IMG/VR virus record: IMGVR_UViG_2693429700_000011
Location: 1-4,893 of that record
DNA length: 4,893 nucleotides
Strand: one strand, 5' to 3'
Source of the DNA: a virus
Lineage: Duplodnaviria; Heunggongvirae; Uroviricota; Caudoviricetes
Part shown: positions 1-4,893 of the stretch, one piece after another
Layout: each line of letters starts with the position of its first letter
Position numbering within the stretch: position 1 is the first letter of the stretch
The notes under the pieces: generated by a model
The model's database searches: none
What the model saw: only the letters and a program-made list of their open reading frames with translations
Told to the model about the DNA's origin: nothing
Position numbers and translations under genes: made by a program

Positions 1-87
1 CTGTGAGTCATATTCATCCTGACTTTCCAGAACCATACGAATCGCCCGCTGACGGACTTCGGGGGAAAAACGAGTATTTTTAGTCAT
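1..87 (-). CDS. IS3-family transposase OrfA, N-terminal 29 codons (partial, runs off window)
   Basis: ATG at complement 85-87. Hand translation gives MTKNTRFSPEVRQRAIRMVLESQDEYDSQ, close to the IS629 OrfA N-terminus as I remember it (MTKNTRFSPEVRQRAVRMVLESQGEYDSQ). Confidence 0.8.
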   Translation of the reverse strand, partial: MTKNTRFSPEVRQRAIRMVLESQDEYDSQ

Positions 88-92
88 CCTGT

Positions 93-2798
93 TTACCTCT
101 TTCTCAGGGAGTTTAGTCTCCAGGATTTCCGGGGCGGTTCAAGTAGCCTTGCTGCATCGGTATTGTTTTGCAGTGCCGCGTGAATATTTTTTGCCTGTTC
201 ATACATCTCCGGACTGATAAACGTTTTCCCGGCATTTTCTTCTTGCTGGCGTTTTTGCCAGTCCTCCAGTGTCACCAGTTCCGGGCGAATTTTCCGTGCG
301 ATTTCGGTTAATTGCTCTTTTGTGCCACTGATGTTGTAAGGCAAAGATTTAGCACGTTCTTTTTTTGCCAGTTCTGGGTCTACAGTTTCAATTTGATCCA
401 GAAGCTGCTCCCGTGCTCCACTGGTTTTCAACAGAGGAGGGAGGCTTGCGTTGTATTCTTTAATACAGGCTTTCATTGCTGATGCTGTGTGTTTTTCCCC
501 CTCAGGAATACGCCGAAATTCCACCGGAAGCGAACCGTAAAGGATGCCTGTTTCTTCGGCCCCGGCACTTACAGACAGTGGCTGTATAAGAGTGCTGTTG
601 TAGCTTTCGATCCACTCTTTCATCTGCTCTGGTGTCATCAGTGCTGGCAGACTGGCATTGTGTTTTTTAATGATGGCGATCAGTTCGCTAGAAGTAGTAA
701 CCACATATTCAGGAACCGGTACCGGAATGGCATATTCATCAGCGAATTTATCCGTTTCCAGAACATAGCTGTGAATGATCCGCCCACGCAGCAGTGCATC
801 ACTTTCCTCGTTCGGAATAGTTCCGGCAATGTGCCGTCCGTGGTAATACATCAGGCTGATACGGGCATCCTTCAGCATCGTGCTGCTTATTCCGTTGGCG
901 GAGTGATAAACCTCGTTCGGGAGGTTTTCATAGCGGCCAGGCTCGAAATATGACGGCCACATGATTTCAGTTGCTACAGGAGCTGACGCTTCACCAGTTT
1001 CATCACTGCAATCACGATGCGGATCGCTGCCAGCATTCTCATTGTGCGGATGTTCAGCGCCTTCCATTTCCTCCGGATCATTTTCCTTAGCTTCAACCTG
1101 ATTCTCTTCATCGAATGTTTCCTGGTATGTTGCGTCGCCCATCACCGCACCACAGTCAGGGCAGTTATCCCCGCCAGTCTGACCGCAGGCATTGCAGACT
1201 ATTTCCGGTTTCTGTTGCACTACTGGCTCAGGTTGTTTCACATCCGGGCTGGTTTTTACAGTTTCTGGCGTGTTTTGTTTCGTTTCTGGCTGGTTCTGGT
1301 ACACAGAGTCGCGAGTCTGGATCCCCTTTACCCATTTCGGATCGTTCGGGTCGCTAATTCCGTCAACAAATTCACCACGTGATGCAGCAAGCAATTTATC
1401 GGCATCGACAGGATTTTTTGATGGAATGTTTTTCCGGGCTTCATGGAGTTCTGCCCGCAGTTTCTGATATTTCGCATCAACAGAATTTACCTGTGACTGA
1501 GCATCCAGCGGCTGCGTGTCCTGATGATGTTCAGTTGCATCCGGTTCCACTGTTTCAGCCGTTGCCTGTTTATCTGCCATTGCGCAAGATGGTTGCGGTT
1601 TTTCTTCACCATCGTGTTTTCCTTCTTCTGTTACACGCTGCGGCATTGGGGCAGAGGAACGACCGCAGGCAATATCCACGATTTCCGGATCAGGGTTGGC
1701 ATGATCGGTTTCAATCAGCACCTTGTTCAGATATTCAGTGACATGCGCAGGGATAACCTCGATCCCAATTGGTGCTTCTTTTACGGACGCAACCACGATG
1801 GCGCGGGAATAATCCAGCCCGCCAGGCATGGTGATGAATTTGTCGCGGAAAACAGAAAAGGGCGGTTTATTTTCAGAGATAATTTCCTCGACACGTTTAG
1901 CGTGTGCCGGATGAAGGTTATAAATGTCCACGTCCATTGAACGGGCCAGGACGCCAGTGGCTACGTCGCGCGCCAGTGACGTCAGATCGTGAACGAAACC
2001 TTCGCCGCGATCGGTGAGGTTCCCGCCGCCAGCATTAGCGCCGGAAGCCGTGCGCGTGATGCGTGAAACACGATTTCCTTTCATCCACTCTTTTGTCAGC
2101 AGACCACGATCGGTGTAGTCTGCGTCCAGGTATGCTTCGAAAAAAGCAGTCATCAGCCCCAGGCTTGAATTGCCTGGATTAGGGAAAACTCTGTCAGTAT
2201 CACGCACCAGTTTGTGGAGATCGCGAATTTCCAGCGGGTCGAGCAGGCTGGTTTTGTGGGAAACAGCCAGGGCAGTAACAGCTGGTAGTTCTTCAGCTCG
2301 TGCAATGTGTAATGCCTGGAGTTCGTCGCGTGAAACGTGCGTTACCGGTTTTTCGCTGCCGTGTTGAGCAAGCCAGCGAATGGGCAGCTCCTGACCGGAA
2401 ATCGGGAGTAGCATATTCTCCTCAATCTCCGTCATGTCTTCGCCATTAACATTGGTATTGTCAGTGCTGGCTGGTTTGTCCTGCGCAGAGGATGAGGGCG
2501 CGATAAATACCATTGTGATGCCATCTTCCCCGCCTTTTTTGTAACGGTTGCAGAATTCCGTATCAAATACGCCCTCTGGTGGAAGGTCATCAACAACGGG
2601 CAAATTGACGCGAACAGGTTTTTTAAAGTCATCTTCATCGTAGCCAGCATCGTCAATCGCAACAGCACCACGGGATATGGCAATGGATAATTTTTTCGCT
2701 TCAGCCCAGTAGAAACCGCCTTTAATACCGAGACGTTTTCTTACTTTGTCATTTTTTGCTTCGTAATACAGTGGGTAAACTTGTTTATCGGTGCTCAT
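93..2798 (-). CDS. recE: RecE-like exodeoxyribonuclease VIII (Rac prophage type), 3' end interrupted by IS insertion; ORF is a recE-IS chimera and probably non-functional
   Basis: 901-aa ORF from the track. ATG at complement 2796-2798 with GAGG about 11 nt upstream. Internal sequence ([45 protein letters not shown]...[27 protein letters not shown]...) matches E. coli RecE as I remember it. Synteny with racC, ydaE and kilR supports the call. The frame crosses the IS junction at 141/142, so roughly the last 15-16 residues and the TAA stop (93-95) are IS-encoded. Confidence 0.85.
105..141 (-). repeat. Terminal inverted repeat (IRL) of the IS3-family element; inner boundary approximate
   Basis: Outermost ~37 bp of the element starting with TGAACCGCCCC on the minus strand. 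The right-hand copy is outside the window, so the IR length cannot be measured here. Confidence 0.55.
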
Positions 2799-2928: not shown

Positions 2929-3174
2929 TCAGAGTTGCCAGAAATTCGGCTTTTTTTCTGCGGGCAGATTCTTTCCGATATGCACCAGGCACATTTTTTT
3001 GACGCCTTCGTTAAGTGTTTTAACGTTGCCTGATGGACCGTCGATATCAACCACAGTGAAAGGGGTTTCTTTATTTTCTGTTTTAATCACGTAGCCAATA
3101 CGCTTTCCTTCCAGGCTGACTTCGTGAACAATGTCATCAGTAGTAACAACAGTGGCTTCATAACTGGTAATCAT
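2929..3174 (-). CDS. racC: RacC (Rac prophage small protein), 81 aa
   Basis: Track ORF 2929-3222 contains MITSYEATVVTTDDIVHEVSLEGKRIGYVIKTENKETPFTVVDIDGPSGNVKTLNEGVKKMCLVHIGKNL..., matching RacC as I remember it. I place the start at the internal ATG (complement 3172-3174) because AAGGAG sits 6 nt upstream; the longer track ORF would translate through this RBS. Confidence 0.7.
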   Translation of the reverse strand: MITSYEATVVTTDDIVHEVSLEGKRIGYVIKTENKETPFTVVDIDGPSGNVKTLNEGVKKMCLVHIGKNLPAEKKPNFWQL

Positions 3175-3248
3175 GTTTTTCTCCTTAATTAAGGTTGAGC
3201 GAATCCCTGCCATTGCTGGCATAAACTCAGTTTCGGATAGTCAGTTAA

Positions 3249-3419
3249 TTAAAGTTCGTGTGCCATCTGGTCTTTTTCGGCACAGATTTCACTACAATAT
3301 TTTTTCATTTCCGTCGTTGGTATAACTCCACGCATGAAATGAAGTGGTCTTGTAATGATTTTGCTTTCTTCAATTTCTTTATTGCAAAGGTGATAAGCAC
3401 ATTTTATTTTCTTAGTCAT
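3249..3419 (-). CDS. ydaE: YdaE-like small Cys4 (putative zinc-binding) protein, 56 aa
   Basis: Not in the ORF track (too short). Hand translation of the minus strand gives [56 protein letters not shown] with stop TAA at complement 3249-3251. It has C-x4-C ... C-x3-C spacing and sits between racC and kilR as in Rac. The ATG overlaps the kilR stop. Confidence 0.65.
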   Translation of the reverse strand: MTKKIKCAYHLCNKEIEESKIITRPLHFMRGVIPTTEMKKYCSEICAEKDQMAHEL

Positions 3420-3640
3420 TACCATGACTCCGCCTTTACAGGTAAACCATCACGACCGAGGAAGACTCTAATCATGCAGTCAGAAATGCATGTTTTTGTA
3501 GTCAGGCTACGAATATAAAGTTTTCGCTTTTTAATATTGTTTGCCGAGGCGATATATGTCCGACCTTCATGAAGAACATAATCGCCAGGGGTCACACACT
3601 GACGTGGTATTTCATCAGTTCCGAAGTGATGAGCAATCAT
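3419..3640 (-). CDS. kilR: KilR (Rac prophage killing protein, cell-division inhibitor), 73 aa
   Basis: Track ORF 3419-3652 reads [78 protein letters not shown] place the start at the second ATG (complement 3638-3640) because GGAG lies 7 nt upstream of it; the first ATG would consume that RBS. The stop TAA (3419-3421) overlaps the ydaE ATG. Confidence 0.7.
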
Positions 3641-3661
3641 AATTATCTCCATTTTTACAAA

Positions 3662-3810: not shown

Positions 3811-4179
3811 CTTTAAAAAGGGCGGCAGAGCAGCCACGGAGTAAAACTGATACCGCCAAACGTCACCAGAAAATTGATAACAGAGGGCGTTGCAGCGGGG
3901 TTGTCACTTAAGCGTATGGTCAACCTGACAACCCGGTGTCCTCAAGGGGAAGGAATAACCCCGCCATACTTACCGCCGCGCCATTTCGCGGAGTGCCACA
4001 ACCGGAAGTGCACGGTCGAATTAAATTTAACGACATCGTACAGTGAGACGAACTTCGCCGTGTGCTTTCGTGTTGTGTGCCTGTCTTTTTACCACTTCAG
4101 GCTCGGTGGTCTCGGCTATACCCCTACAGCGAGAGTCTGTGATAGCATTTTGATACCCTTACAGTAGAGAGTTATTAAT

Positions 4180-4713
4180 ATGCCTGATGTATTCGGCTTG
4201 TTGAGCAAGTTATTCAGTAACGAACCCTTAGAGCGCCTTATGTACATGCTTATTATCTTTGTTTTGATATTGCTCTTTATGCCTGATTCTGTGCCGGAGT
4301 ATGTTCAAGACAAAATCAGCATTCCTTATATTTACCCGGTATTCGTTTTTGCCTTTTCTTTTGTGCTGGCTATAAATCTCCAACGTTTAGCTTTATTTCT
4401 TCGTAAGATCTGGCGAAGTCACCGGAACAACACAAGAGAACAAAAAATAATCAGCCATATCAATGCAGTTATCGATTCCTTGACTGCGGGTCAGAAAAAA
4501 ATTCTCATTACGGCATTATCGAGGAACTATCCTGTGATCCATGCTGTACGCAATGATTCTGATATAAAAAAACTGGTATCTGCTAATATTTTGCTCCCCA
4601 TGGAAGGGCAACTCCTTCCCGACGAAAATCCATACTGCGTTTTGCACATAAACGATATTTTCTGGCGTGCCCTCATGCTCAGATGGAATGCCTATAGCGG
4701 TGAGATTGAGTGA
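4180..4713 (+). CDS. sieB: SieB-like superinfection exclusion / abortive-infection membrane protein (putative); start codon uncertain
   Basis: 177-aa track ORF with two predicted transmembrane helices (LMYMLIIFVLILLFM and IPYIYPVFVFAFSFVLAINL) followed by a ~110-aa soluble tail. It is divergent from kilR, at the position sieB occupies in Rac. Assignment is by synteny and topology, not remembered sequence identity. Only a weak GAGAG RBS precedes the 4180 ATG; in-frame Met21 and Met23 (4240, 4246) are alternative starts. Confidence 0.5.
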   Translation: MPDVFGLLSKLFSNEPLERLMYMLIIFVLILLFMPDSVPEYVQDKISIPYIYPVFVFAFSFVLAINLQRLALFLRKIWRSHRNNTREQKIISHINAVIDSLTAGQKKILITALSRNYPVIHAVRNDSDIKKLVSANILLPMEGQLLPDENPYCVLHINDIFWRALMLRWNAYSGEIE

Positions 4714-4740: not shown

Positions 4741-4817
4741 CGCTCCTTACCTGCCTCTGGTTTATTGAGAGTTTGAAACAAACTTTAGACTGGCCCCCTG
4801 AATCTCCAGACAACCAA

Positions 4818-4837
4818 TATCACTTATTTAAGTGATA
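4818..4837. promoter_or_regulatory. Palindrome inside the IS2 left end (TATCACTT-ATTT-AAGTGATA); likely the IS2 promoter/OrfA-repressor site
   Basis: Perfect 8-bp arms with a 4-bp spacer, seen directly. Attribution to IS2 transposase-promoter autoregulation by InsA is from memory of the IS2 literature. Confidence 0.5.
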
Positions 4838-4876
4838 GTCTTAATACTAGTTTTTAGACTAGTCATTGGAGAGCAG

Positions 4877-4893
4877 ATGATTGATGTCTTAGG
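4877..4893 (+). CDS. insC: IS2 OrfA (InsC-type) N-terminus, first 5 codons plus partial (runs off window)
   Basis: GGAG at 4868-4871, ATG at 4877-4879, then ATT GAT GTC TTA GG giving MIDVLG, the IS2 OrfA N-terminus as I remember it. Confidence 0.7.

Follow-up and report, generated by a model that had tools for sequence, protein, structure and literature searches.

A long-type recE gene of a Rac-like Escherichia coli prophage split by a copy of IS1203

The recE gene of a Rac-like prophage located at ttcA was very probably interrupted by one single 1.31-kb copy of IS1203, which would have transposed into codon 886 of the 1041-codon gene with duplication of the 3-bp sequence ACT. The upstream fragment now encodes 886 native and 15 IS residues and is closed by a TAA within the leader of the IS, whereas the C-terminal 155 residues, which hold the PD...DxK motif, have been parted onto the far side of the element, and the exonuclease would be dead; recT is intact but stands 1.3 kb farther from the operon promoter, behind the IS, with probable polarity. 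The window (the whole stretch of DNA analysed here, 4893 bases) is the entire contig CYAS01000122.1 of the E. coli draft assembly GCA_001283645.1; a second contig from this assembly, CYAS01000048.1 (34,265 bp), carries the far side of the insertion at its end. Both junctions are known from the ends of short-read contigs, and from these we infer the single IS copy and the adjacency of the two contigs.

The gene layout of the window is that of the early-left region of the K-12 Rac prophage, read on the minus strand, and recE as well as the racC-like, ydaE-like and kilR-like ORFs all share this one orientation. Besides recE, the following genes were assigned:

2929 to 3222, minus strand: racC-like ORF, by synteny with K-12 Rac and EC11
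3249 to 3425, minus strand: ydaE-like ORF, by synteny with K-12 Rac and EC11 and by the Pfam family YdaE
3419 to 3652, minus strand: kilR-like ORF, by synteny with K-12 Rac and EC11 and by the Pfam family KilR
4180 to 4713, plus strand: sieB

When compared with K-12 and EC11, the window together with CYAS01000048.1 displayed the order intR-xis-(ralR)-recT-recE-racC-ydaE-kilR-sieB of a Rac-like prophage at ttcA; position and order are the same in K-12 Rac (ttcA-intR-xis-ralR-recT-recE-racC-ydaE-kilR-sieB). Past recT, CYAS01000048.1 carries a Lar/RalR-family gene, DUF1187, an excisionase-like gene, an integrase, ttcA and dbpA.

At the left end of the window, recE runs into the insertion sequence, and the features around the junction are as follows:

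1 to 141, minus strand: left end of IS1203 (IS629 isoform, IS3 family), with the terminal inverted repeat at about 115-141, the leader and 29 orfA codons
1 to 87, minus strand: N-terminal part of the transposase OrfA of IS629/IS1203, with its ATG at 87 to 85, opening MTKNTRFSPEVR... / MTKNTRFSPEVRQRAIRMVLESQDEYDSQ...
142 to 144: one copy of the target-site duplication, AGT on the plus strand and ACT in the recE sense
93 to 2798, minus strand: recE::IS1203 fusion ORF of 901 aa (CTT85599.1 / WP_072184512.1)
142 to 2798, minus strand: native 5' portion of recE, 886 codons, comprising the Exonuc_VIII domain, a linker and the first part of the PD-(D/E)XK domain
96 to 141, minus strand: IS-encoded tail of the fusion protein, namely the third base of codon L886 and 15 codons, as placed by protein alignment
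95 to 93, minus strand: TAA stop of the fusion ORF, IS nucleotides 47-49

Window positions 1-141 were identical, at 141 of 141 bases, to annotated copies of the "IS3-like element IS1203 family transposase", which removed the doubt whether this stretch is an IS3-family terminus at all. The original prediction had recE cut by an IS3-family element; the element could now be named as IS1203/IS629, and both junctions and a 3-bp duplication were recovered for it. The contig edge falls within IS1203, of which 141 nt lie on the window. A complete copy of 1310 bp with TG...CA ends, flanked by a 3-bp duplication (CTT), is present in espY2 of E. coli O157:H7 PV15-279 and served as the reference; its left end corresponds to window base 141, and its annotated transposase CDS begins at the position matching the OrfA start given above. 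For this copy, whose ends are identical to those described here, the annotation records a programmed frameshift together with the pseudoknot belonging to it.

The position of the junction was derived from two independent comparisons. Intact recE of EC11 is identical to the window from 142 on and unrelated before 142, and other copies of IS1203 (one on a plasmid, one in espY2 of O157:H7) part from the window right after ...GGTTCA at 141; these alignments together place the recE/IS junction at 141|142, in agreement with an IS terminus within the recE frame at 140-141 as originally proposed. The native recE DNA at 142-1000 was 99.5% identical to annotated recE genes. The 5'-TG...CA-3' termini of IS1203 were found here as well, contig CYAS01000048.1 closing the IS with ...GGTTCA. 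The terminal inverted repeats, about 25-27 bp long, are imperfect, with 22 of 25 positions matching between IRL TGAACCGCCCCGGAAATCCTGGAGA and IRR TGAACCGCCCCGGGTTTCCTGGAGA.

In some records the IS appeared to match as far as 157-160, and an IS portion longer than 141 was therefore considered; on alignment, the part past 141 proved to be a low-quality extension and this candidate was rejected. A megablast match of recE, in turn, reached window position 128, inside the IS, and from this arose the idea that the IS had been targeted through an IS-end-like sequence, the insertion target TCCGGGTGGTTG faintly resembling the IS tip TCCGGGGCGGTTCA. When both IS ends were aligned locally in both orientations with the 50-nt target, a score of 7 was obtained, which was equalled by 42% of 1354 control windows. 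The targeting idea was rejected and the resemblance attributed to chance.

In the protein alignment, the break falls after residue 868 of the 1023 residues of EC11 RecE, equal to residue 886 of the re-joined 1041. The fusion ORF thus keeps 886 native residues, the third base of codon 886 being supplied by the IS, gains 15 IS-encoded residues and has lost the last 155, in line with the original prediction that the native RecE C-terminus was swapped for IS-encoded residues. That prediction also had the frame open across the junction and closing at a TAA located 5 nt before OrfA, and this part stood, with ACAGG (92 to 88) lying between the TAA and the ATG of OrfA; it erred in putting the TAA inside the terminal repeat, since by the coordinates of the element the stop sits in the IS leader, between the terminal inverted repeat and orfA.

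The 901-aa product is entered in RefSeq as "exodeoxyribonuclease VIII" without comment (WP_072184512.1) and elsewhere as "putative phage exodeoxyribonuclease" (CTT85599.1), and neither name is accompanied by a pseudogene flag. Such entries would suit a naturally short RecE whose native C-terminus lies at this place. However, the full-length relatives, namely EC11 RecE (WP_041327105.1, 1023 aa) and the members of the 90% cluster (1028-1049 aa), are uninterrupted, unlike recE of the window, and run past ...AARLL with an identical stretch of 155 residues (NHPDRKSEISYFGFDEETGLEIRVRPDIEIRLPYESICADVKS...LEALSI), while the last 15 residues of the 901-aa product are encoded by IS DNA. The alignments hence refute a natural end of the protein, to which we give next to no credence; intact homologues ending at the same residue had been named as what would speak against the insertion, and they go on for 155 residues.

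A simple insertion predicts that the IS1203 right end, a duplicate of 3 bp and the remainder of recE should follow one another at the reciprocal junction, and six candidate ORFs were listed for it. A predicted hybrid ORF of 176 aa had an exact-sequence match in the protein collection (CTT44391.1/CTZ22349.1, "putative phage exodeoxyribonuclease"), and a 182-aa candidate remainder ORF starting from an upstream ATG was absent from that collection. The 176-aa hybrid reads MIWQPEFTDKTLSRKPGAVQ and then LNHPDRK...LEALSI, and is made of 20 IS-encoded residues and the catalytic 155 residues. It sits at the end of CYAS01000048.1, where the IS1203 right end (124 of 124 bases identical to the PV15-279 copy) is followed by ACT and then by the missing 155 codons, so that the other IS end, the 3-4 bp duplication and the recE/recT remainder, proposed earlier as a check of the insertion, were all recovered on this contig. 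The IS1203 copy of recE is represented in the assembly by 141 + 124 nt, with orfA amounting to 29 codons on the window.

The minus strand of the window reads ...GGCT ACT|TGAACC at the junction and CYAS01000048.1 reads GGTTCA|ACT CAACC, whereas the intact allele has a single ACT at the insertion site (GGCT ACT CAACC). The target duplication is exactly 3 bp, a length of 4 bp being excluded by the neighbouring bases. Removal of the IS and of one ACT restored an open frame of 3126 nt (1041 codons) that contains no internal stop, and the 155-residue remainder was identical to the C-terminus of EC11 RecE and of the cluster relatives. The presence of ACT at both junctions and the re-joining of the halves to an open frame argue for simple transposition, and chance is implausible, given that 141 of 141 bases match, that the IS stops precisely at its canonical TG terminus and that a reciprocal junction with a 3-bp duplication exists in the assembly. 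The insertion is probably recent, as both gene halves are otherwise undamaged and the IS ends show no difference from the PV15-279 copy.

A chimeric join of recE reads with IS reads might be suspected in a contig as short as 4893 bp with repeats at both ends. Several observations speak against such an assembly artefact: the canonical last base of the IS is precisely where the join lies, recE does not truly resemble the IS end there (an equal score is reached by 42% of random 50-nt windows), the reciprocal junction is present with the expected 3-bp duplication, and both contigs are recorded in two samples; we regard it as extremely improbable. A later rearrangement, for example an inversion by homologous recombination, would leave the two junctions on different IS1203 copies today and the recE halves apart. 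It draws on the location of both junctions at the contig ends of a short-read assembly, on the multi-copy nature of IS1203/IS629, which occupies up to 50 places per genome in many E. coli, and on the other decay of the prophage (an IS2 end at the right edge of the window, a frameshift in intR). Nevertheless, the matching 3-bp duplication and the perfectly complementary halves mark the original event as a simple insertion, and no observation requires a rearrangement, which is accordingly judged unlikely. The insertion of a single IS1203 copy is the reading followed below.

The N-terminal Exonuc_VIII domain (PF06630) was detected in the window ORF at residues 52-189 with 130.6 bits (cut-off 25). 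On the other hand, the C-terminal 290 residues matched the PDDEXK-like family PF12684 (233 positions) at positions 1-53 only, with 17.8 bits against a cut-off of 26, while the intact allele reached a PDDEXK-like score of 51 bits; a search of the PDB with the window ORF gave no match. The active site of RecE is known to be of the PD-DXK type and to include His-652 as a further residue (PMC11611040), Lys761 being the conserved catalytic lysine, to which Gln781 was proposed to hydrogen-bond (PMC3239189). The K-12 RecE numbering in our alignment reproduced H652, D748, D759, K761 and Q781. RVRPD of the intact allele aligned with RCRPD (D748) of K-12 RecE and ADVK with MDVK (D759, K761), a pairing that the HMMER alignment with PDB chain 3H4R_A reproduced.

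The whole PD...DxK motif is located within the 155 residues past the break, and from the catalytic set only the equivalent of His-652 is kept in the window ORF; the His...PD...DxK nuclease domain of RecE is therefore complete only in the re-joined gene. The original prediction that part of the nuclease core was lost turned out to be understated, as the entire motif is gone according to the alignments to K-12 RecE and 3H4R, and no D...ExK motif had been visible at the time because it lies entirely past the break. Lacking the catalytic lysine and the aspartates that bind metal, the 901-aa product should have no exonuclease activity.

It could be argued that the split is not a pure loss, and that a separated or altered RecE function, or an IS-dependent expression of recT alone, would result if both fragments were expressed. 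This reading is based on the 886-residue fragment, which keeps the large N-terminal region of RecE, and on the 176-aa hybrid ORF, which starts in the IS right end and lies directly upstream of recT. The function of the large N-terminal region of RecE is poorly understood. However, activity is improbable for half of a PD-(D/E)XK fold, and support for expression of the fragments was not seen, there being no promoter-like site on the relevant strand, and thus we hold a gain or change of function to be highly unlikely and retain the loss of RecE activity as the predicted outcome. The IS1203 right end reads outward with one frame open over at least 26 codons (positions 48-127 of locus L007 of CYAS01000048.1), with ATGs at 48 and 66, and an insertion in this frame and orientation consequently fuses the gene fragment lying downstream to IS codons in a hybrid ORF.

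On CYAS01000048.1, recT begins 11 nt past the stop of the recE remainder and encodes a protein of 350 aa (PF03837) that is identical to EC11 RecT at 349 of 350 residues. The downstream recT that adjoins recE genes is thus present here too, with the IS separating it from the window ORF. It had been presumed displaced or deleted; displacement, by about 1.3 kb, is what was found, and deletion was disproved by the intact gene after the recE remainder. We also considered, and rejected, an outward-reading hybrid promoter formed at the right end of the IS that would drive the recE remainder and recT, since L007 1-1800 of CYAS01000048.1 contained no promoter-like site on the strand concerned. With 1.3 kb of foreign DNA ahead of it and no outward promoter-like site at the IS right end, recT is probably under-expressed through polarity.

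On the side of the window, a terminator-like site is absent from the minus strand in the interval from recE to OrfA, and it is plausible from this, as originally suggested, that transcripts of the early-left operon could run on into orfA. Their translation would be halted in all three frames, because the frames entering the IS1203 left end all close before the OrfA ATG (TGA at IS nucleotides 1-3, TAA at 27-29 and TAA at 47-49); no RecE-transposase, that is host-transposase, fusion can therefore arise from this end. The 5-nt gap from stop to start would allow some translational coupling onto OrfA, a geometry which is a property of any IS1203 insertion in the same frame and nothing special to this one. 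The possibility that an RNA structure masks the OrfA start in read-through transcripts was considered as well: a 6-bp AUCCUG/CAGGAU stem forms in the junction RNA, and the 130-nt fold was no better than shuffles (z = -0.75).

Shiga-toxin-producing E. coli are rich in IS629 and IS1203. In prophage genes of these strains one meets the same element, 100% identical over the ends available here; the copy that splits espY2 in O157:H7 PV15-279, for example, shares its TG...CA termini and the 3-bp length of its target duplication with the recE copy. The preference of IS629/IS1203 for prophage DNA in Shiga-toxin-producing E. coli is likewise matched by the recE case; in four O157:H7 genomes, 62% of the IS629 copies were located in prophages or prophage-like elements, and the target duplications of IS629 were 3-4 bp (PMC3271280). 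The two copies differ in their target: the recE/IS junction occurred in none of 5426 complete E. coli genomes, in which the best coverage was 87%. The insertion site is strain-specific, and not a new kind of thing.

When re-joined, the present recE is of a long type encoding 1041 aa, in comparison with 866 aa for K-12 Rac RecE, the nuclease domain of which is available as PDB 3H4R. Both have the same PD-(D/E)XK fold and the same His...PD...DxK residues, and residues ~114-600 are near-identical between the two. The first ~113 residues are unrelated to those of K-12 RecE, unlike EC11 recE, which has a K-12-type N-terminus. Furthermore, the present allele has ~150 extra residues in the nuclease domain, between the helix of the His-652 equivalent and the PD motif, for which Pfam returned nothing above threshold. 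The RecT partner differs in length as well (350 aa here, 269 aa in K-12). The long recE variant occurs widely, and existing annotation already names it exodeoxyribonuclease VIII.

The split recE amounts to an insertional pseudogene of an ordinary sort, and adds one further case to the erosion of E. coli prophage genes by IS629/IS1203, with little import beyond annotation hygiene. WP_072184512.1 is an IS-fused truncation, for which a pseudogene-product flag is due. The strain should lack RecE nuclease activity, and probably RecET recombination, from the present prophage. For draft assemblies, the case illustrates a way of putting a split gene back together: the hybrid ORF expected at the opposite junction is predicted, and its exact sequence is then looked up.

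The prophage is decaying, as seen from IS1203 in recE, an IS2 end and a frameshifted intR. The Rac-type integrase is split into ORFs of 188 aa and 254 aa (L007 2416-3650 of CYAS01000048.1) by a 1-nt deletion relative to EC11 intR, and with this frameshift the excision of the prophage is probably lost. In the right part of the window two further features were noted:

4786 to 4893: left end of IS2 (TAGACTGGCCCCCTGAATCTCC...), with its orfA ATG at 4877
3820 to 3871, minus strand: full-length DicF small RNA (Rfam RF00039)

The IS2 end begins 72 nt past the sieB stop, at the right contig edge, so that the 4.9-kb contig has a different IS3-family element at each edge (IS1203 at the left, IS2 at the right); the genes past sieB, which in K-12 are ydaF, ydaG and racR, are thereby cut off or displaced. 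DicF was detected with 75 bits (gathering score 48; E = 8e-16) and contains a terminator-like hairpin at 3837 to 3822; it lies between kilR and sieB, where the K-12 Rac annotation has the kilS sRNA.
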